Positions 1,553-61,656 of a stretch of 64,000 nucleotides of DNA are shown piece after piece. This DNA is from Escherichia phage TrudiRoth. Each line of letters opens with the position of its first letter. Position 1 is the stretch's first letter. A program made the position numbers and the translations under genes. The stretch lies in the sequence record MZ501109; one strand, written 5' to 3'. The notes under the pieces are model-generated. The model made no database searches. It saw only the letters and a program-made list of their open reading frames with translations, and was not told the origin of the DNA.

Positions 1553-4112
1553 CTAAAATCCTTTTCACATTATCCAGATCTTTACATACAGCAATAAACT
1601 TATCATCCTTGTACTTGCTGTGGTCTGGATGCTCTTTATCCATTGCAGCTAACTTCTTATACTCGAAATCTGCATCGAGTAATACACCCTTAACATAACG
1701 AGTATACTCATCATCATCAATACAAGCGATTGATGGGTGCTGTTTCTTCATCTTACCACAAGAGTAGTCACGAGAACCACCTTTCTCGGAATCAGAATCA
1801 ATACCGATTGGGCAGCCAGGGATACTAATACCACGATCCTTCTGGATGCTACGAATCAGAATCTCGTTATACTGATCGATCAGATCTTCACGTACAATGG
1901 CAACCACGGAGTCGTGAACCAACATGACGATCTTCATCTCTTTTCCTAGACCCAGTGACAGGATTTCTTCATCAGCATCAATAGCACCTAACAACAGGCT
2001 ATCAGAAGATGCAGACTGAATGATTGCGTTAAATCCAGAACGGATTTCTTCACCCTGAACACCACGATCTTCGGAATGGATGTTGTGCAGACGACGCTTA
2101 CGACCAAAGTGACTATAGATGAATCCAAAGTTCTTGATCTGATCGTGGCACTTATCAATCCAACGCTTAAGCTGAGGGAACTGACCGAAGTAAGTTTCGA
2201 TATAGTCCTTAGCATCTGCAACGGTACATTCAACAAACGGTTCGCCTGTCTTAGCAGCCTGTTCCAGAAGAGCTTCGTTAACAGAATGAGCTACTTTCGC
2301 TGGGCCAGAACCATACAGAATACCGAAGGTAATTGCCTTAGCAGCTTGACGCAGAGCTGGGAACAATTTCTTAACATCACGCGGTTCACAGGTCAGTTTA
2401 AATACCATGTGTGCGATGTTAGAGTGGAAGTCAGGGTATTTATCCGGCTCATTCTTCATGTTGATAAATACTTGTTGCATGTTTCTGTCACCAGACAGTA
2501 CAGCAGCGTAATAAACTTCCGCAGTTGTTAAGTCCCATGCGATTACACGGTATCCCGGAGGAGCTACTACACAACCCTTGATAATAGATTCATCACGTGG
2601 TAACTGTTGCAGGTTCAGCTTACCAGAAGAACTCAGACGACCAGAAGTAGTCATATGTTCATGGAAACCAGTACGAATGCAACCATCTGCATCGATGCTC
2701 AGAAGAATCTTCTCAACATAAGTAGAGATCAGCTTAGTCAGCTTACGAATCTCTAGCAGAGTTTTCGCAATCGGGTGCTGAGTAGCCAATTCATTCAGAG
2801 CTTCTGCGTTTGTAGAATCTGCACCTGTATCCGTCAATTTACCCGTTGGAGTCAAACCAACATAATCAAACAGAAGAACACGGAGTTGCTTAACAGAGTT
2901 CGGGTTAAACGCTTCGTTCTGATTCTTCTCCAGCTGAACGACTTCTGGATAAGTATACAGCTTCTCACGAGCCATATTTAATCGATGTGTCAACTGATAC
3001 TGAGCTTCTTTCAAGCGATCAACGGAAATCGGTACACCACGATCTTCAACACGTTGCAGGAATACACAACCAGGCATCAGAACTTCGTAGTATAGACTGC
3101 AAAGCTTTTCGTTCTTCTCAATTTTTGGTAAGAAGAAGTTATGCAGACGCAGAGTAGCATCGGTATCTTTTGCAGCATATGGCCACATAATATCAAAAGG
3201 AATCAGATCATAGCTGAAATCCTCTTTTTTGATCTTATGTGCCTTGCAATAATCATCCTTGAACTTATCCAGTTCAAAGTCATAGTCACCCATGTCAGTG
3301 TACTTCATAGCCAGAGATTTCAAGCCGTGAGTACCACGACGTTCATCGAGAACATAGTGTTGTAACATGGTATCGTGAAGTCTACGCTCTTTATGTGCTT
3401 TCTCGAAGGAAAGTCCTAGATGATAGGAGTAAAAGTGCATATCGAACTTCAAGTTATGAAAAACGATCTGATGATTCTTGCTATCCAGAATTTTCTGGAG
3501 ATAATGTACAGCTACTTCGGTGATGCTGTCAGAGTCAATATAGACACCCTGATACTCTTGGTGAGACATAGAAACACCAAGAAGATAACCATCACGAGCA
3601 TACAGAGCTGAGGTTTCGGAGTCGAATGCGATAGGTCCGATAACCATATTATACACCATCTTGATGTATTCTTCAGCTTCATCTGGATCAGTAATAGGAC
3701 GATAATCACCAGCTTTTGCAATCTTCTCACGACCATTAATAATGTCATGAATACTTTCAACAGTAGCATCGAAAACTGGTTTCATTTCAGGTTTAAAGTG
3801 TAGCTGAGCTGGACTAATACTTGCAATCCAGTTGGCATAGCCACCATGCTCTACACGTTTACCAGTATAATCACCTATACCTTTCTTACCTGCGAAATAC
3901 AGGAAAGGTTCAGCACCGACTAGCACAACAAAATCGTAATCGTTCGGATCGAACGGGTTATCTGGAGTTCCGATTGTAATATGCTTTTTCAGCAAACGAC
4001 CAGATAACTTCTCGTTACACATATGGAATACATCAACTTCCTCACCATAAAGCTGGAAGTGTTTATCATAACGAGTGTTATTTAGAGCTTTATCAACTAC
4101 TGCAATTTTCAA
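1545..4112 (-). CDS. DNA polymerase, family A (855 aa), with N-terminal 3'-5' exonuclease region
   Basis: Pol A motif B RQAAKAITFGILYG and motif C MLVHDS; 855 aa matches the size I recall for T5 DNA polymerase. Confidence 0.85.
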   Translation of the reverse strand: MKIAVVDKALNNTRYDKHFQLYGEEVDVFHMCNEKLSGRLLKKHITIGTPDNPFDPNDYDFVVLVGAEPFLYFAGKKGIGDYTGKRVEHGGYANWIASISPAQLHFKPEMKPVFDATVESIHDIINGREKIAKAGDYRPITDPDEAEEYIKMVYNMVIGPIAFDSETSALYARDGYLLGVSMSHQEYQGVYIDSDSITEVAVHYLQKILDSKNHQIVFHNLKFDMHFYSYHLGLSFEKAHKERRLHDTMLQHYVLDERRGTHGLKSLAMKYTDMGDYDFELDKFKDDYCKAHKIKKEDFSYDLIPFDIMWPYAAKDTDATLRLHNFFLPKIEKNEKLCSLYYEVLMPGCVFLQRVEDRGVPISVDRLKEAQYQLTHRLNMAREKLYTYPEVVQLEKNQNEAFNPNSVKQLRVLLFDYVGLTPTGKLTDTGADSTNAEALNELATQHPIAKTLLEIRKLTKLISTYVEKILLSIDADGCIRTGFHEHMTTSGRLSSSGKLNLQQLPRDESIIKGCVVAPPGYRVIAWDLTTAEVYYAAVLSGDRNMQQVFINMKNEPDKYPDFHSNIAHMVFKLTCEPRDVKKLFPALRQAAKAITFGILYGSGPAKVAHSVNEALLEQAAKTGEPFVECTVADAKDYIETYFGQFPQLKRWIDKCHDQIKNFGFIYSHFGRKRRLHNIHSEDRGVQGEEIRSGFNAIIQSASSDSLLLGAIDADEEILSLGLGKEMKIVMLVHDSVVAIVREDLIDQYNEILIRSIQKDRGISIPGCPIGIDSDSEKGGSRDYSCGKMKKQHPSIACIDDDEYTRYVKGVLLDADFEYKKLAAMDKEHPDHSKYKDDKFIAVCKDLDNVKRILGA

Positions 4113-42632: not shown

Positions 42633-42820
42633 AAATGTTAGTTAAATTTAAGTGTTGTGGTTCTGAACATATTTTCACTCGTTATAGAGAGTTTAAGATG
42701 TGTGAGTGCGGTAAATCAGGCTACGATGCTGGAGATGGCTATTATGCTAGATCTATAGGACATTCTAAAGATCTAGAGTTTACTAATCTCGAAAAGCAAG
42801 ATAAATCGACCGTTGGCTGA
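42629..42820 (+). CDS. small Cys-containing protein (63 aa); 3' end overlaps a tRNA gene
   Basis: ORF track. Confidence 0.45.
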   Translation: MKMLVKFKCCGSEHIFTRYREFKMCECGKSGYDAGDGYYARSIGHSKDLEFTNLEKQDKSTVG

Positions 42821-43846: not shown

Positions 43847-43911
43847 TCTAACGGTTAGGATACTCCCCTGTCACGGGAGAGGTAGGGTTTCGATTACCCT
43901 TAGTACCGCCA
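43837..43911 (+). tRNA. tRNA-Asp (anticodon GUC)
   Basis: Perfect acceptor ggtacta/tagtacc, anticodon arm ctccc-cuGUCac-gggag, T-arm agggtTTCGATTaccct, CCA. Confidence 0.75.
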
Positions 43912-43917
43912 AATTAT

Positions 43918-43994
43918 ACATCCATAGCTCAATTGGTTAGAGCTACCGCCTCTTAAGCGGTAGGTTCTAGGTTCAAGTCCTAGTGGGTGTACCA
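43918..43994 (+). tRNA. tRNA-Lys (anticodon CUU)
   Basis: Acceptor acatcca/tgggtgt, D-arm gctc-aattggtta-gagc, anticodon arm accgc-cuCUUaa-gcggt, T-arm ctaggTTCAAGTcctag, CCA. Confidence 0.65.
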
Positions 43995-44207
43995 AACATC
44001 AGAGCAGCGTGATGTACTGCAAAGACCCAAAGTCCGGGGTGGACTTCTTGATTCAAAGGAGCAGGCACTAATTATCATTCTAGCGTGGTGGAGAGGGGAC
44101 ACCAGCTTGCCGAGGGTAGAAGCTCGTTCGATTCGAGTGAAAGAATGGTTCTCGTAAATCCGCACAAGTGATAGCAGGTTCAAGTCCTGCCTAGATTGAC
44201 TTATTAT

Positions 44208-44281
44208 GCGTTCGTAGTTAAAAGGTATAATTTTTGGTTGCCAACCAGAAGTTGAGGGTTCGATTCCCTCCGACCGCACCA
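44208..44281 (+). tRNA. tRNA-Gly (anticodon GCC)
   Basis: Acceptor gcgttcg/cgaccgc (one mismatch), anticodon arm tttgg-uuGCCaa-ccaga, T-arm gagggTTCGATTccctc, CCA. Confidence 0.6.
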
Positions 44282-44590
44282 AATCTATCAAACCAAGCCT
44301 GCGCATTCGTGTAACAACTTGTGCGTCTGTAAGGTGATAGTAAACAAGCCACGGAGTTCCGGCCGTTCAACGTGGTAAAATCTTCTGAATAACAGGTCGT
44401 GGATACCTCTTTGGAGGCTCAACGGAAACGCAGGAGTGTAAGTAAACGAAAGTTTACTTATTATGTAGGTTCCGATAGATCGGCGGGTCTATTCTGGCAT
44501 TTAAGAGAAGTCTCGCAAACTTCTTTGTCAGCCGTGGGGTTGGTAGCCTCCAGGTGGCCTACACAATAAGTAAATTTATTAAAAATTAAT

Positions 44591-44619
44591 TTGCTATTCT
44601 GCTTAATTATCTGTATAAT
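44591..44619 (+). promoter_or_regulatory. early-type sigma70 promoter (TTGCTA-17-TATAAT)
   Basis: ttaatTTGCTAttctgcttaattatctgTATAATatattttataaagtgaataga. Confidence 0.6.
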
Positions 44620-44653
44620 ATATTTTATAAAGTGAATAGAAGGAAGTTAACAA

Positions 44654-44893
44654 ATGAAAAAATATTCAGAAGAATTTCTAGAAGATATGGATTTACATTA
44701 CCTGTTAACTTTGGTTTTAGAAGAAAAAATCTATGACCAATTTGATCTAGAAGGTCTTACAAAAGTAGATTGTATTCGTGCCCTTCTCACTGTTGAAACT
44801 CGCTATTTCGAATGTCAACAGTGTGGTGAAGTTAATGAGTGCTCTTGGGAATGTCCAGAGTGTGGATATGACGATCTGCTTGAAACAGAATAA
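44654..44893 (+). CDS. small zinc-ribbon protein (79 aa)
   Basis: CQQCGEVNECSWECPECG. Confidence 0.5.
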   Translation: MKKYSEEFLEDMDLHYLLTLVLEEKIYDQFDLEGLTKVDCIRALLTVETRYFECQQCGEVNECSWECPECGYDDLLETE

Positions 44894-44896
44894 TAT

Positions 44897-44973
44897 CTCC
44901 GATTAGCTCAATTGGTTAGAGCTACCGCCTCTTAAGCGGTAGGTTCTAGGTTCAAGTCCTTCATTGGAGACCA
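44897..44973 (+). tRNA. second tRNA-Lys(CUU)-like gene with weakened T-stem (possibly degenerate)
   Basis: D-arm, anticodon arm and T-loop identical to the 43918 copy; acceptor ctccgat/attggag; T-stem only 3 bp. Confidence 0.45.
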
Positions 44974-44979
44974 AACAAT

Positions 44980-45057
44980 TGCGGGTTAGATCTTTGGTAG
45001 AGATCGCTAGTCTCATAAGCTAGAAAGAGGTAGGTTCGATTCCTGCACCCGCTTCCA
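44980..45057 (+). tRNA. tRNA with CAU anticodon (Met/fMet/Ile2), U1-U72 mismatch
   Basis: Acceptor tgcgggt/acccgct with mismatched first pair, anticodon arm ctagt-cuCAUaa-gctag, T-arm gtaggTTCGATTcctgc, CCA. Confidence 0.55.
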
Positions 45058-45078
45058 ATTTAATAGAAGGATTTCGAA

Positions 45079-45243
45079 ATGAAATTATTTCGTTTAAAAG
45101 TAAGTGATTTACGTTCTAGCAAAGATCGTAAGAAGTATCCACTAGCCCATTACGGTAAAGATGAAAACGAAGTGATGGCGGAATTTGGTATTAATCACCC
45201 TTACTTAAAAGTTTATTCTATTAAGGAAGTCTATGCTAATTAA
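45079..45243 (+). CDS. small ORF (54 aa), below ORF-track threshold
   Basis: Own translation MKLFRLKVSDLRSSKDRKKYPLAHYGKDENEV... Confidence 0.35.
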   Translation: MKLFRLKVSDLRSSKDRKKYPLAHYGKDENEVMAEFGINHPYLKVYSIKEVYAN

Positions 45244-45706
45244 TAAAGTTTTAGCTGCCTTAAACCTTCCTGATAACTTCATTATAGATGATAAGCTCAT
45301 AAGAGCTTATATGAGCAAATATAACGAAATTTCAGGTAAAGAAGGTAAGTTAAAAACTTCAGAGTTTAGATTCTGTTATCGAATGGCAGCCTTAAATCTC
45401 TTAAAATATAAAAGGGAGCATAAAATACCTATAACGGAAGGTTTTGTATATGTAATTGGTAATCCAGCATGGCCAGGCATGTATAAAATAGGTATGACTA
45501 TAGATGTGAATGAGAGGTTAACAAGTTATCAAACTTATTCACCTAATAGAGACTACAAGCTATACCATTTCAGATTTTCGTCGGATAAAAGACGTACAGA
45601 GAAAGAATTACATAATCTTCTTAAAGATTATAGAGTATCTGGAGAATGGTTTGAAGTACCTGTACTAGATGCTTTTAAATTATTAGTAGAAAAATTGGAT
45701 TGCTAG
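45233..45706 (+). CDS. T5orf172-like (GIY-YIG-related) putative homing endonuclease; 3' end overlaps a tRNA
   Basis: GFVYVIGNPAWPGMYKIGMT... and YRVSGEWFEV; recalled from the T5orf172 domain, not searched. Confidence 0.5.
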   Translation: MLINKVLAALNLPDNFIIDDKLIRAYMSKYNEISGKEGKLKTSEFRFCYRMAALNLLKYKREHKIPITEGFVYVIGNPAWPGMYKIGMTIDVNERLTSYQTYSPNRDYKLYHFRFSSDKRRTEKELHNLLKDYRVSGEWFEVPVLDAFKLLVEKLDC

Positions 45707-45774
45707 CTCAACTGGATAAGAGTAGCGGACCTTTAATCCGTCAGTTCTGGGTTCGAATCCCAGGCAATCCACCA
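45697..45774 (+). tRNA. tRNA-Lys (anticodon UUU) with C at position 33
   Basis: Perfect acceptor ggattgc/gcaatcc, D-stem gctc/gagt, anticodon arm gcgga-ccUUUaa-tccgt, T-arm ctgggTTCGAATcccag, CCA. Confidence 0.6.
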
Positions 45775-45778
45775 AATT

Positions 45779-45852
45779 GCTCGGTTAGTTTAATGGGAGA
45801 ACCCCGTCTTTACACGGCGGTTGCGATAGTTCGATTCTATCACCGAGTACCA
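45779..45852 (+). tRNA. tRNA-Val (anticodon UAC)
   Basis: Acceptor gctcggt/accgagt, D-stem gttt/gaac, anticodon arm ccgtc-uuUACac-gacgg, T-arm gatagTTCGATTctatc, CCA. Confidence 0.7.
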
Positions 45853-45870
45853 CTCAACTAAAATAAGGAA

Positions 45871-46113
45871 TTGCAAATGCAATTATCATCTAAAGTTCAA
45901 GGTTTCTTCGCACATGCAACAGCAGAATTTGCTATTAGCAAGGGTTGGGATTTTGAGCAAGAACTTTCTGAGTTCTATAAAGATATAGATATGAATACGC
46001 CATACATGGGACTCTCCACTGGTCAAGAGATCACAGAAGGCGATGTGTTCAAGGCAAGTCAAGGTGAGGTAACACCTAGTTTTGCCGCTTTTTTGGAGTG
46101 GCTTCACAATTAA
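45871..46113 (+). CDS. hypothetical protein (80 aa)
   Basis: ORF track. Confidence 0.5.
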   Translation: MQMQLSSKVQGFFAHATAEFAISKGWDFEQELSEFYKDIDMNTPYMGLSTGQEITEGDVFKASQGEVTPSFAAFLEWLHN

Positions 46114-46222
46114 AGAAGAAGCTCCAGATGATGATGTATTTATGCAAAGCATGCACTCTGGGAGTTCTGATATGTTATTTGTTAAAGATGTACGACATAT
46201 CCAAGAAGTGGTAAAAACGCAG

Positions 46223-46251
46223 TTGCTTAATGCTTAATTTCTTGTTATAAT
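46223..46251 (+). promoter_or_regulatory. early-type sigma70 promoter followed by ~330 nt with no ORF, then tRNAs
   Basis: cagTTGCTTaatgcttaatttcttgtTATAATatttatataaattgatgcg. Confidence 0.6.
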
Positions 46252-46585
46252 ATTTATATAAATTGATGCGAAAATAGCTGCCTAGATACCAGGTGTATGA
46301 CGTCTACACTAGCAGAGCTACCGAAAAAGAGATCCTCAGGATAAACGTCGTAGCAAAATTAGTCTGGTATCCATTAATTTAGTTCACTAAGGTATTAGCT
46401 CGACCTAGGACTGGCTGCCAAAAAGCACGATCCCTACGATTTGGGAGAAGTTCTAGATTAGTCCACTAGATTCAGCGGCAACTGAATAGTGTATCGGGTT
46501 TGTGAAGAGCAGCTATTCTCTACTGGCTAATGTCTGAGGTTAGTACGCACACCGAGCTAATAGCCTTAGTAAACTTAAAGAATTT

Positions 46586-46661
46586 GGGCGAATAGTGTCA
46601 GCGGGAGCACACCAGACTTGCAAGTCTGGTAGGGAGGGTTCGAGTCTCTCTTTGTCCACCA
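46586..46661 (+). tRNA. non-canonical tRNA (GCA-containing anticodon arm; loop of 8 or 6 nt)
   Basis: Acceptor gggcgaa/tttgtcc, D-arm gtgt-cagcggga-gcac, anticodon arm is a perfect 18-nt palindrome ccagacttgcaagtctgg, T-arm gagggTTCGAGTctctc, CCA. Confidence 0.45.
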
Positions 46662-46676
46662 AATTAAAAAGAATGC

Positions 46677-46753
46677 GCGCGATTGACGGAATAGGTATAC
46701 GTGTCAGCCTTAGAAGTTGAATTTTGAGGGTTCGAATCCCTTGTCGCGCACCA
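46677..46753 (+). tRNA. tRNA with UAG anticodon (Leu-type) but short variable arm
   Basis: Perfect acceptor gcgcgat/gtcgcgc, anticodon arm tcagc-cuUAGaa-gttga, T-arm gagggTTCGAATccctt, A73, CCA. Confidence 0.5.
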
Positions 46754-46878
46754 AATTTGATGGTCAGAGTAAATTAAACCTACTATCTCGGTTGAGCTGT
46801 TTTAATGGATTCGAATCCCAGCGAGGCGTAACTGCCTGGCGTGATAGAGGCATCATTCCACTAACATTGGAAAAACTA

Positions 46879-47109
46879 ATGAAACGAAAATTAAAAAAGT
46901 CTTATATAATTAAGATAAATAAGCTACGAAGTAGGGCAAAAGGATGGCCACTTCGAATATTAATTGCGGATAACCATATTAGATACCATGCGGAACAACA
47001 TCATTACAAACAGTGGGAGTCATACTGTCGCTCAAAAGCAGGTCGTTTAGATGGATCTTATGAGCTTCTATTTGGTAAGAAGCCTACTAGATTAGCTTTA
47101 GGTAAGTAA
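46879..47109 (+). CDS. small basic protein (about 76 aa)
   Basis: Track ORF 46717..47109 truncated to internal ATG because its 5' part overlaps tRNA/tRNA-like sequence. Confidence 0.4.
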   Translation: MKRKLKKSYIIKINKLRSRAKGWPLRILIADNHIRYHAEQHHYKQWESYCRSKAGRLDGSYELLFGKKPTRLALGK

Positions 47110-47114
47110 TACTT

Positions 47115-47208
47115 GGAAAAGCAAATAGACTGGCGACTAAACCCGATTGGAAATCGGTTGAGTAATAGCAATATTGCCTTATGGGTTCAACTCCCATCTT
47201 TTCCGCCA
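47115..47208 (+). tRNA. tRNA-Ser (anticodon GGA), long variable arm
   Basis: Perfect acceptor ggaaaag/cttttcc, anticodon arm ccga-uuGGAaa-tcgg, T-arm atgggTTCAACTcccat, CCA. Confidence 0.7.
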
Positions 47209-47223
47209 AATATTGGAGTATAG

Positions 47224-47739
47224 ATGCTAACACAACAAGAATTAAAATCCGTGTTGTTATATAAACCAGATACTGGAGAGTTTTTCTGGAAATATAGATC
47301 TGATTTAGATAGTCAATGGAATAGTAAATATGCTGGAACTAGGGCAGGATTTATTAATGAACTAGGCTATTGGAAGATAACTCTAGGAAATACTAGCTGG
47401 TTAGCACATCGTCTAGCATTCTTATACATGACTGGGGAAATACCAGATCTAATTGACCACAAGGATCAAGATAAGTCCAATACTAAATGGGATAACTTAC
47501 GAATAGCCACTGTATCACAGAATCAGGCTAATGCTAAATTAAGGGTAGATAATACCTCTGGGTACAAAAATGTAACTTGGCATAAGCAAAGAAATAAGTG
47601 GAAAGTAGAAGTACGTAAAGATGGCAAACTCCATTATGGTGGACTTTTTACAGAACTAGATAAAGCTGTAAATAAAGCTAATAATCTTAGACGTGAGTTA
47701 TTCGGGGAATTTGCAGTATATGAAGAGTTTATGGGGTAG
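47224..47739 (+). CDS. HNH-AP2 homing endonuclease (paralog); 3' end overlaps tRNA-Ser
   Basis: HRLAFLYMTGEIPDLIDHKDQDKSNTKWDNLRIATVSQNQAN and AP2-like SGYKNVTWHKQRNKWKVEVRKDGK. Confidence 0.75.
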   Translation: MLTQQELKSVLLYKPDTGEFFWKYRSDLDSQWNSKYAGTRAGFINELGYWKITLGNTSWLAHRLAFLYMTGEIPDLIDHKDQDKSNTKWDNLRIATVSQNQANAKLRVDNTSGYKNVTWHKQRNKWKVEVRKDGKLHYGGLFTELDKAVNKANNLRRELFGEFAVYEEFMG

Positions 47740-47829
47740 GTCAATCCAACGGCTGGCGCTGGACTCCGACTTGAAATCGGTTGATCGTAGTGATACGGTG
47801 TAAGGGTTCGATCCCCTTACCTACCTCCA
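47735..47829 (+). tRNA. tRNA-Ser (anticodon UGA), long variable arm
   Basis: Perfect acceptor ggtaggt/acctacc, D-stem tcca/tgga, anticodon arm ccga-cuUGAaa-tcgg, T-arm aagggTTCGATCccctt, CCA. Confidence 0.7.
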
Positions 47830-47849
47830 ATTAACTATAAGGAATCCTT

Positions 47850-48023
47850 ATGAGCAAAACAGCTACTGTAACAATGAAGGATGGTACAAAATTTAAAGCA
47901 TGTCTTCATGAAACAGATAATGGATGGAAGGCTTATTTGCCACACCTAGATTCCACTGGGTATGGAATGACCCAACGTGAAGCTATTGTTGATGCTTTAA
48001 ATGAGGCTTCCGCTGGTTTATAA
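47850..48023 (+). CDS. small ORF (57 aa), below ORF-track threshold
   Basis: Own translation MSKTATVTMKDGTKFKACLHETDNGWKAY...; RBS taaggaatcc. Confidence 0.35.
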   Translation: MSKTATVTMKDGTKFKACLHETDNGWKAYLPHLDSTGYGMTQREAIVDALNEASAGL

Positions 48024-48029
48024 AAATTC

Positions 48030-48160
48030 TTGGAATATGCCGGAATTGGTAGACGGGACTGCCGAATAGGTTTACTAGGAACATCCACTCCTAGAAATAT
48101 ACCTTAAAAGCGGTTGAGTTAAATGGTATAACTCATGAAGGTTCAAGTCCTTCTATTCCT
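48030..48160 (+). tRNA. tRNA-Leu(UAA)-like gene (type II) with ~40-nt insertion in the anticodon arm; 131 nt, no encoded CCA
   Basis: Acceptor tggaata/tattcct (6 of 7 bp), UG at 8-9, Leu-type D-arm ccg-GAATTGGTAGA-cgg, stem actgc(48057-61)/gcggt(48109-13) separated by 47 nt ending in cuUAAaa, 6-bp variable hairpin, T-arm gaaggTTCAAGTccttc. Confidence 0.4.
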
Positions 48161-48282
48161 TGATACATCAATGGCTCAAAGTGTAACGGTGCTATTTGAT
48201 GCTCTTGGCAAGACTTCCCCGACATGCGTTCGGGAGTAAGCTGCTAAGACTAGAGTAGAAGAGTTTCAACAAGACAACGATA

Positions 48283-48357
48283 GCTCTTAAAGCATTGCTG
48301 GCGATGCAGTTGCCTTGTAAGCATCTGAACCGGGTTCGATTCCTAGTGGGAGCACCA
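48283..48357 (+). tRNA. tRNA-Thr (anticodon UGU)
   Basis: Acceptor gctctta/tgggagc, D-stem gcat/atgc, anticodon arm gttgc-cuUGUaa-gcatc, T-arm ccgggTTCGATTcctag, CCA. Confidence 0.6.
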
Positions 48358-48373
48358 AAATTAAAAAATTCAT

Positions 48374-48402
48374 TTGCCTTCTCTCTTATTTCTTGTTATT
48401 AT
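48374..48402 (+). promoter_or_regulatory. sigma70 promoter (TTGCCT-17-TATTAT)
   Basis: ttcatTTGCCTtctctcttatttcttgtTATTATatttatataaattaatgagaggg. Confidence 0.55.
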
Positions 48403-48432
48403 ATTTATATAAATTAATGAGAGGGAAACCAA

Positions 48433-48726
48433 ATGAAACGTTATCTTTCTGTTATGTTCCAAACTGGTGGTCAACGCTATACTTATGAATTTCCATCTTC
48501 TTGGAAGATCAAAGAAGGTGATCAAGTAGTAGTGTTAACACCGCGTGATGGTTTCAAGGTAGTAACGGTTAAGCAAGTATTTCCAAAAGATCACGAACCA
48601 TCTAAGGCTATTCAGTACAAGATGATTCATGGTCTGGTACGAAAAGTACCTAGAACAGAAGTCGAAGTAGATAAAACTGGGGAAGCTAAATACCAGTATA
48701 CCTCTTACTTAGACGAGTTGTTATAA
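48433..48726 (+). CDS. hypothetical protein (97 aa)
   Basis: ORF track, promoter and RBS. Confidence 0.55.
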   Translation: MKRYLSVMFQTGGQRYTYEFPSSWKIKEGDQVVVLTPRDGFKVVTVKQVFPKDHEPSKAIQYKMIHGLVRKVPRTEVEVDKTGEAKYQYTSYLDELL

Positions 48727-60546: not shown

Positions 60547-61058
60547 TGGCCGGTATTTCTCAGGAATACCTGAAGAGTAGACTAACCTATAATCCTGAAA
60601 CATGGGAGTTTCGGTGGAAGCCTAACCCAAATGCTAGTAAAACATGGAATACTAGGTTTGCTGGTAAAGAAGCAGGTACTCTAAATAAAACTACCGGATA
60701 TATCAATTTAACAATTGATGGGGTTAAGCATGGTGCACATAGAATGGCTTTCTTATACATGGAGGGCTATTTACCTACTAAAGTGGATCACAAAGATACA
60801 ATAAGAACAAATAATGCTTGGAGTAACCTTAGGGCTGCTGATAATGCTCAGAATACTTGGAATGCTGGTATGAAAAGCTCCAATACTTCAGGATTTAAAG
60901 GTGTTTACTTAGATAAGCGTATAAATAAATATGTAGGTAGAGTTCGCTTTAGAGACAAAAGGTTCTCTACTAAATATTATGAAAATGCTGAGGATGCAGC
61001 TAAAGAGTTGGAAATCCTTAGAGAACAGTTACATAAAGAATTTGCGAGGAATGAATAA
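60546..61058 (+). CDS. HNH-AP2 homing endonuclease (paralog)
   Basis: HRMAFLYMEGYLPTKVDHKDTIRTNNAWSNLRAADNAQN and AP2-like SGFKGVYLDKRINKYVGRVRF. Confidence 0.75.
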   Translation: MAGISQEYLKSRLTYNPETWEFRWKPNPNASKTWNTRFAGKEAGTLNKTTGYINLTIDGVKHGAHRMAFLYMEGYLPTKVDHKDTIRTNNAWSNLRAADNAQNTWNAGMKSSNTSGFKGVYLDKRINKYVGRVRFRDKRFSTKYYENAEDAAKELEILREQLHKEFARNE

Positions 61059-61656
61059 TGCGTGTTAAATTCTGGTCGGATTTGCACTTAGACCACCCTG
61101 GAACTCTTCGCTTCCGTCCGTGGTTTAAGAATATGAAAGAACATGATGAATATATCCTAGATACTTTGTCCAAGCACATTGGCAAGCGTACTAAGCTCGT
61201 CTTGCTAGGGGATATTGCCGTGGGGCGTGAAGGGTTGGCTAAATTAAAGTCGGTTATCCACAATGTGCCTAACCAGTTAATCATGGGCAACCACGATGCT
61301 GAACGTCAGGGTCTGCATATTAAAGATCTTGTAGACGTTTATGATGATATTCAGGCTCTAGGTAAGCAAACAGGTGGTGGCAAGAAGTTTTGGCTGTCAC
61401 ACTGTCACACTGTCCATTGCACGAAGCAGAACTTCGTGGTAAGCTAAACATTCACGGACATGTGCACACCAATTCTGTGCGCGACCCACGTTATATCAAC
61501 ATCTCTTTTGAGATGAGTAAGACTCCTATTCCTCTAGAAGATATTGTATCTGGCAAGTTCACAAGCTATGATAGAGTAGTTAACTGCACTACTGGTGAAG
61601 TACTCCAAATCGATGAAGATGTGGCAGCAGTATTGAGGGGAGATATCAATGTTTGA
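61058..61656 (+). pseudogene. metallophosphoesterase gene split into two ORFs by a -1 frameshift at an 8-bp tandem duplication
   Basis: ORF1 has DLHLD and GDIAVG, GNHD; ORF2 (TTG-initiated in track) has HGHVH; tandem ctgtcaca-ctgtcaca at 61394-61409; removing one unit gives continuous ...FWLSHCPLHEAELRGKLNIHGHVH... Confidence 0.55.

Follow-up and report, generated by a model that had tools for sequence, protein, structure and literature searches.

A private allele of the T5-type tRNA-Ala(UGC) gene with an eight-nucleotide anticodon loop in Escherichia phage TrudiRoth

Transfer RNAs whose anticodon loop was enlarged from 7 to 8 nt by a one-base insertion include the sufA6 and sufB2 tRNA-Pro (with an extra G adjoining position 37), the sufD tRNA-Gly, the sufJ tRNA-Thr and engineered quadruplet tRNAs, and such an insertion is the classic origin of suf tRNAs (PMC9094753; PMC4238358; doi 10.1101/2020.12.31.424971). 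These tRNAs were isolated or evolved for suppression and carry the additional base in or beside the anticodon. Loop insertion can confer modest quadruplet decoding on about one third of the E. coli isoacceptor classes (PMC9094753). A natural 8-nt anticodon loop is present in the yeast mitochondrial tRNA-Thr1, which reads CUN triplets and is conserved across yeasts with a defined recoding role, and a few further natural tRNAs have loops of non-standard size (PMC3113583; PMC5009743). One-base insertions can also arise in quasipalindromes, which are template-switch hotspots where mutations perfect the repeat; the conversion of an imperfect to a perfect inverted repeat is the defining outcome of quasipalindrome template switching, and hotspots of this type are described in E. 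coli thyA, phage T4 rIIB and yeast CYC1 (PMC7202029). During the repair synthesis that follows double-strand breaks, quasipalindrome mutations and homopolymer frameshifts are reported to occur at high rates (doi 10.1101/2023.08.09.552703). The tRNA-Ala(UGC) gene of phage T5 (T5t11, NC_005859 31714-31788) has copies in about 45 T5-like phages. According to the record notes of T5 and phage 5, the T5-type tRNA-Ala acts as an effective amber suppressor after exchange of its anticodon, which means that the canonical gene works and that charging takes place irrespective of the anticodon.

The stretch of DNA analysed here, referred to as the window, comprises 64,000 nt of sequence record MZ501109 and belongs to a T5-like phage of the family Demerecviridae. 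Among public sequences, those of the Epseptimavirus phages Shin27 and HildyBeyeler come nearest to it, with about 98% identity across most of the window. The first-pass annotation, made from the letters of the sequence, had proposed at 46586-46661 on the + strand a tRNA with an anticodon arm forming a perfect 18-nt palindrome and forced into an 8-nt or 6-nt loop. The sequence read directly at this position, GGGCGAAUAGUGUCAGCGGGAGCACACCAGACUUGCAAGUCUGGUAGGGAGGGUUCGAGUCUCUCUUUGUCCACCA, matches that description. The features of the gene are as follows.

46586..46661, + strand: tRNA gene, T5-type tRNA-Ala(UGC) allele with 8-nt anticodon loop and encoded CCA end (ARAGORN, Rfam, orthologs)
46617..46624, + strand: 8-nt anticodon loop CUUGCAAG, consisting of C32 U33 U34 G35 C36 A37 A38 and an additional G (sequence, ARAGORN, Rfam)
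46611..46630, no strand: 20-nt perfect palindrome ACCAGACTTGCAAGTCTGGT, consisting of A26, the anticodon arm and U44 (palindrome scan, folding)
46624..46624, + strand: private inserted G between A38 and U39, opposite C32, which perfects the quasipalindrome (ortholog alignments)
46647..46647, + strand: second private change, C62>U, turning the T-stem pair G52:C62 into G52:U62 (ortholog alignments)

The unusual loop was confirmed. In the sequence itself, the acceptor stem comprises 7 bp including G3:U70 and the D and T arms are regular, so that the arms outside the anticodon arm are of the standard kind that had been described. ARAGORN predicted 23 tRNAs in the window. This one alone was given the label tRNA-???; its anticodon was reported as four bases (tgca) starting at position 34, which corresponds to a loop of 8 nt. 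The mutated allele is also the only tRNA-Ala(UGC) of the window. With 40.2 bits against the Rfam tRNA family RF00005 (gathering score 29) the gene scored above the gathering score while departing from the family's 7-nt anticodon loop by having 8 nt, and the alignment placed 2 residues in the loop where the model has 1. Since RF00005 needs this additional anticodon-loop residue, the covariance model yields no 7-nt loop, the fold that had been named beforehand as speaking against the unusual structure.

The palindrome is perfect as first described, but it extends over 20 rather than 18 nt because A26 and U44 pair too. It is the longest palindrome of the window, the runner-up having 14 nt, and the corresponding figure for palindromes of at least 18 nt in shuffled windows was 0.4. 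As a consequence of the symmetry of the anticodon arm only even loop sizes of 8, 6 or 4 nt can be formed. For the arm alone, RNAfold favoured 7 bp with a UGCA tetraloop at -8.8 kcal/mol (z = -4.4), a thermodynamic prediction for unmodified RNA; for the complete 20-nt palindrome the predicted fold has 7-8 bp closed by the same tetraloop.

On the basis of sequence identity and the shared gene order P13b, RNA 2H, tRNA-Ala, tRNA-Leu(UAG), the gene is identified as the ortholog of T5 tRNA-Ala(UGC), T5t11. The 75-nt form present in 44 phage records, T5t11 included, agrees with the window at 74 of 76 positions; none of these 44 records is identical to the window tRNA and none contains the extra G. 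In the alignment against T5 precisely two differences are seen, G46624 and C62>U (46647), and the same two changes set the window copy apart from about 55 public copies. With T5t11 it shares locus order, acceptor stem, A73 and CCA, and it differs by the additional G after A38, which creates the 8-nt loop and the perfect palindrome, and by C62>U. The alanine identity pair G3:U70 is retained (G3 at 46588, U70 at 46655), as is the discriminator A73 (A at 46658, just before the encoded CCA), and the acceptor stem is the same as in T5 tRNA-Ala. The pair G3:U70 is the major determinant for alanyl-tRNA synthetase (AlaRS) and, together with A73, constitutes the alanine identity elements. The T5, SelmaRatti and TrudiGerster copies were all called tRNA-Ala(tgc) by ARAGORN. 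An earlier suggestion that the gene duplicates the GCA anticodon of the tRNA at 42807 does not hold: that gene is a tRNA-Cys(GCA) with U73 and of unrelated sequence, the target has A73 together with G3:U70, and the two sequences barely align. The comparison with orthologs likewise gives a different picture of the loop, which is no conserved design but the outcome of the insertion of one base that all other public copies lack.

The distribution of the allele was assessed with pattern scans that tolerated any anticodon-loop length in IMG/VR, JGI metagenomes and GTDB genomes. The 8-nt loop was not found in IMG/VR, where 6 T5-type copies were recovered, all with 7-nt loops; the JGI metagenomes contained one T5-type tRNA-Ala copy with a 7-nt loop and no +G allele, and the GTDB genomes contained no T5-type tRNA-Ala. 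Including INPHARED, no second +G copy was obtained from any of these four collections. The remaining matches of the loop-tolerant scans were of unrelated sequence and were rejected as orthologs. A search of IMG/VR for the exact 18-mer palindrome gave one match, which lay within a coding region of an unrelated contig and was regarded as a chance occurrence. Exact look-ups of the proteins from the truncated ORF, the HNH gene and the truncated phosphoesterase gene gave no match. The T5orf172 protein was present on 15 contigs, and a T5-type tRNA-Ala occurred at none of 10 places among the matches listed. On the metagenome contig Ga0180433_10012105 (L017, approximately 3000-3075) a relative of the T5-type tRNA-Ala with the loop CCUGCAA was observed, in which position 33 is C as opposed to the near-universal U.

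A second anomalous allele of the same gene was found in the Salmonella phages phA11 and phC11 (OQ680478, OQ680480).

L006 801-874: phA11 tRNA-Ala allele without C32, also in phC11 (annotated as tRNA-OTHER; ARAGORN tRNA-??? with a 2-base anticodon (gc))

The loss of C32 leaves a 6-nt loop, and the arm CCAGATTGCAATCTGG is a perfect 16-nt palindrome. Among 644 ARAGORN tRNA calls in the fetched T5-like loci, the phA11 allele is the sole one without a 3-base anticodon, so that both known anomalies reside in one arm of one gene. In both cases the palindrome was perfected by a 1-nt indel involving C32, which is deleted in phA11/phC11, whereas in the window the complementary G is inserted instead.

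The structure of the canonical arm offers a likely explanation for this recurrence. In ACCAGA-C-TTGCAA-TCTGGT, the two halves form an inverted repeat in which only C32 is left unpaired, and the self-complementarity of U33-U34-G35-C36-A37-A38 makes the arm near-palindromic. Whereas the T5 arm CCAGACTTGCAATCTGG fails to be a palindrome, the window arm (with the additional G) and the phA11 arm (without C32) are perfect ones. An imperfect inverted repeat has thus been turned into a perfect one, presumably with the other arm as template, as is characteristic of quasipalindrome mutations. During replication or post-break repair synthesis, the nascent strand would fold back on itself at TTGCAA, which is self-complementary, and use its own 5' arm as template, whereby a G would be added opposite C32 and the palindrome perfected. 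We infer this template switch from the sequence outcome. The templated indel perfects the repeat as at the thyA, rIIB and CYC1 hotspots, although the quasipalindrome of the window, unlike these, is a tRNA anticodon arm. A quasipalindromic arm of this kind appears to be peculiar to a UGC anticodon placed between U33 and A37-A38. In the T5-like phages the palindrome has been perfected twice independently, by +G in the window and by loss of C32 in an event shared by phA11 and phC11, which suggests a sequence-encoded mutational hotspot that would repeatedly give rise to tRNAs with expanded or contracted loops. For a second tRNA-Ala type (ACTGC-CTTGCAA-GCAGT) the same scan gave 2 canonical matches, which are too few to judge how general the hotspot is; altogether, the tRNA-Ala(UGC) genes of T5-like phages are of at least three sequence types, present in varying combinations. 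The window tRNA is a new, private allele of an already-known gene for which a known mutational mechanism provides the explanation, and we consider it highly probable that it is a real mutation of quasipalindrome origin. On this reading, an eye-catching 4-base-anticodon phage tRNA can be a private lesion of a well-known gene, a question that a comparison with orthologs settles quickly.

An error of sequencing or assembly, with the phage in reality carrying the canonical 75-nt tRNA-Ala, was considered in connection with the other private lesions of the genome. A frameshift screen, in which ORFs from about 60 related loci (IMG/VR) were compared with the window, returned only two cases backed by at least 12 relatives each; the few further candidates rested on 1-2 loci each.

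45877..46237, + strand: phrog_7572 ORF, broken by a private T5>T6 expansion (T run 46089-46094; relatives, alignments)
61058-61656, + strand: calcineurin-like phosphoesterase gene (phrog_547), broken; 196 aa in 12 relatives

The phrog_7572 ORF is a small conserved ORF about 500 nt upstream of the tRNA, which starts with ATG at 45877 and encodes 119 aa in relatives. In the window the 0 frame ends at a stop codon at 46111-46113, and the C-terminal 48 codons lie in the +1 frame from 46091. In the phage collection, every full-length phrog_7572 match is shorter by one base and has the in-frame T5 form. The phosphoesterase lesion is a private 8-bp tandem duplication, with CTGTCACA occurring twice at 61394-61409. 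By their form, the T5>T6 expansion and the 8-bp duplication fall into the same slippage-type class, and they occurred in the same lineage. All other indels relative to the closest relatives were located between genes, had lengths divisible by 3, or came in pairs as artefacts of aligning divergent stretches.

The +G allele is a singleton known from one assembly, and the homopolymer +1 change 500 nt upstream is a classic type of error, both of which speak for a faulty sequence. On the other hand, the inserted G lies outside any homopolymer (CAA|G|TCT), and none of the 110 homopolymer runs of at least 5 nt inside ORFs of at least 100 aa is frameshifted in the window, where large ORFs of up to 970 aa are of full length. 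Moreover, an 8-bp tandem duplication is not a typical base-calling error, and phA11/phC11 provide an independent public allele with a complementary, palindrome-perfecting change at the same site. An erroneous sequence is accordingly rated as decidedly unlikely.

The surroundings of the gene bear on the setting in which the lesions may have arisen. The tRNA had been described as lying behind a promoter and an ORF-free leader of about 330 nt; a promoter is indeed located upstream, but the leader corresponds to the known region of P13b and RNA 2H.

46203..46277, + strand: promoter homologous to T5 P13b (annotated in T5 and phage 5)
46393..46565, + strand: homolog of T5 'RNA 2H' (T5s04), a stable RNA whose function is not known (T5 and phage 5 annotation)
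46677..46753, + strand: tRNA-Leu(UAG), downstream neighbour in the same cluster as in T5 (ARAGORN, Rfam, T5 annotation)
45233-45706: T5orf172/MUG113 endonuclease-like gene in the mosaic patch
47224-47739: HNH_3 endonuclease-like gene in the mosaic patch

The P13b homolog was assigned by homology to the annotated T5 promoter and comprises a -35 element TTGCTT at 46223-46228 and an extended -10 element TGTTATAAT at 46243-46251, with the core TTGCTTAATGCTTAATTTCTTGTTATAAT identical in alignments A2 and A3. The tRNA-Ala gene, situated behind RNA 2H, would be transcribed from this promoter. A generic promoter scan missed it since the -35 hexamer matches at 3 of 6 positions only. In the RNA 2H homolog, a closing stem of about 21 bp (46381-46402 / 46553-46575) is conserved, and compensatory changes affect 10 predicted pairs, mostly in a variable 3' hairpin. 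For the leader and RNA 2H, no Rfam family was found at a permissive threshold in 46000-47300. The leader between P13b and RNA 2H (46265-46380) exists in two forms among T5-like phages: a segment of about 115 nt is present in the window, SelmaRatti and phage 5, and T5, TrudiGerster, PMBT22 and Shin27 have instead a hairpin-like segment of about 20 nt, GAGGAGAAATCCTCATCA.

The neighbourhood of the tRNA-Ala gene (43900-48700) forms a mosaic patch with the greatest similarity to sequences of the Tequintavirus type. Within this patch the identity to HildyBeyeler falls to 82-93%, from a level of about 97-98%, and at 49.4 kb it is back at 99%; relatives have 1-2 tRNA-Ala(UGC) genes, which belong to three sequence types. 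Owing to the flanking HNH and T5orf172 endonuclease genes, error-prone gene conversion is a plausible setting for the lesions.

With regard to function, the mutant tRNA is probably still a substrate of AlaRS and charged with alanine, judging from its intact identity elements. Its anticodon arm can extend to 6-7 bp, leaving a loop of 6 or 4 nt, which would bury U33 and the anticodon, and a poor or dead decoder is the most likely result predicted from the folding. A tRNA-Ala(UGC) is also provided by the host, and T5 remains viable when tRNA genes are deleted. As the host provides the same tRNA, the phage gene is dispensable and the lesion is therefore tolerated. Moreover, an identical copy was present among the fetched relatives for 17 of the 22 other tRNAs of the window, and the occurrence of a second private change, C62>U, while these 17 are unchanged suggests relaxed constraint. 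We consider it somewhat more probable than its converse that the mutation is real and also impairs function, leaving a recently damaged, largely non-functional allele of a dispensable gene. The window tRNA is best described as a fresh pseudogene-like allele rather than a designed frameshift reader.

The lesion could also be real and nearly neutral, with the 8-nt-loop tRNA being processed, charged with alanine and reading GCN triplets acceptably. Outside the loop, the elements of identity and architecture are all preserved, the anticodon loop is not read by AlaRS (PMC9094753), and the amber suppression by the canonical T5 tRNA-Ala with a replaced anticodon, mentioned above, shows that charging is anticodon-independent. 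Furthermore, natural triplet-decoding tRNAs with 8-nt loops exist (PMC3113583; PMC5009743). These arguments are countered by the position of the extra base, which is complementary to C32 and leaves a self-complementary loop with predicted tetraloop closure, as well as by the missing conservation of the +G allele and the relaxed constraint indicated by the second private change. The comparison with tRNA-Thr1 is limited in the same way, since that tRNA is conserved across yeasts and the window allele is private to one genome. Near-neutrality is thus regarded as unlikely.

The damaged-allele reading itself has to accommodate two points: the allele is present in one genome only, and 8-nt loops are able to decode, as the yeast mitochondrial tRNA-Thr1 and the suf tRNAs show. 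In addition, if both lesions arose by accident, the coincidence of a private +1 frameshift 500 nt upstream, directly after an Ala codon, must be absorbed; the joint chance of the two lesions under such an origin is roughly estimated to be in the low percent range.

This coincidence is what makes a functional +1 frameshift-suppressor tRNA-Ala, possibly selected for rescuing the neighbouring phrog_7572 ORF, worth weighing. The shift site reads GCC GCU UUU UUG G, i.e. ...UUU GCC GCU UUU UUG G... in the window compared to ...UUU GCC GCU UUU UGG... in TrudiGerster and PMBT22. In a natural, phage-borne suppressor/target pair the tRNA-Ala would take GCU in the A site, the expanded loop would drive the +1 shift and GCU-U (46087-46090) would be read as one Ala, restoring the 119-aa protein. 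Either decoding of GCU-U as one Ala or slippage on UUU-U would give back precisely ...SFAAFWSGFTIKEE..., and no stop codon interrupts the +1 frame before the normal one. The repaired product matches the protein of TrudiGerster and PMBT22 at the shift site, the private T insertion is directly 3' of an Ala codon within the decoding range of a UGC anticodon, and the two private lesions are at most 540 nt apart. The 8-nt loop arose by the single-base insertion typical of suf tRNAs, and alanine identity is intact and independent of the anticodon. A change of ACU to GCU (Thr>Ala) beside the frameshift relative to SelmaRatti was examined as a second coincidence and rejected, because TrudiGerster and PMBT22 have an in-frame GCU; going by the closest alleles, GCU is the ancestral codon at the shift site.

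Several observations nevertheless weigh against suppression. The two lesions are of the most frequent kinds of slippage and template-switch mutation, and a single error-prone repair tract would explain their clustering; the T6 run alone permits UUU-U slippage of tRNA-Phe, for which no special tRNA is needed, and the third lesion, the 8-bp duplication, could not be suppressed in this way. In the known suf tRNAs the insertions are at 33.5-37.5, i.e. in or next to the anticodon, whereas the additional G of the window sits after A38, where loop and stem meet; being the complement of C32, it favours closure of the loop, so that the resemblance to suf tRNAs is one of loop size only. An active Ala +1 shifter would affect every GCN codon genome-wide and would be costly; an engineered Ala quadruplet tRNA was severely toxic and halted the growth of E. 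coli (PMC9094753). Competition with the abundant host tRNA-Ala would also be required. Retention under selection would be reflected in an allele common to related genomes, and the +G allele is not conserved among them. The candidate cognate site GCU-U (46087-46090) lies in the adjoining phrog_7572 ORF, which is part of a mosaic tRNA region and whose function is not known. The literature yielded no description of a T5-like phage tRNA that acts as a frameshift suppressor or has an odd loop. The earlier suggestion of frameshift suppression is physically possible, but nothing shows that it has been selected. Taken together, a functional suppressor is judged very improbable, and the specific pairing with the phrog_7572 ORF more doubtful still. 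If that pairing were real, it would represent a rare natural case of quadruplet-style decoding that arose in a virus and was caught soon after its origin. More generally, frameshift-prone tRNAs could arise naturally from the tRNA-Ala(UGC) arm hotspot, and selection might act on them now and then.

Other adaptive roles, comprising an Ala-charged GCA tRNA that miscodes Cys codons, an escape from anticodon nucleases or a regulatory tRNA-like RNA, appear hardly credible. An alternative stacking register of the loop does offer a U33-like U, GCA and A37, and phage tRNAs have been proposed to evade anticodon nucleases by loop changes (PMC10264068). That work (eLife 2023) dealt with mycobacteriophages, and with substitutions rather than insertions. 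The window allele is a singleton, and Cys-to-Ala miscoding would be harmful. No nuclease directed against tRNA-Ala is known to us from these hosts. For a regulatory tRNA-like RNA, which had been raised as an alternative in the first-pass annotation, no evidence in support was obtained, as neither a regulatory partner nor a conserved context was seen.

Two further segments of the window resemble tRNA genes in part. The segment 46754-46850 (+ strand), located 3' of the tRNA-Leu gene, is conserved, gave no ARAGORN or Rfam call and may be a tRNA remnant; it contains the T-arm-like sequence GGATTCGAATCCC (46807-46819) and is also present in phage 5. At the same point after tRNA-Leu, T5 carries the hegC HNH endonuclease gene. 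The segment 35148-35219 (+ strand) gave no ARAGORN call and a borderline Rfam tRNA match of 29.3 bits (gathering score 29). It has good acceptor, D and T arms together with an unaligned anticodon region of 18 nt, and lies in a stretch that is highly diverged from the relatives.
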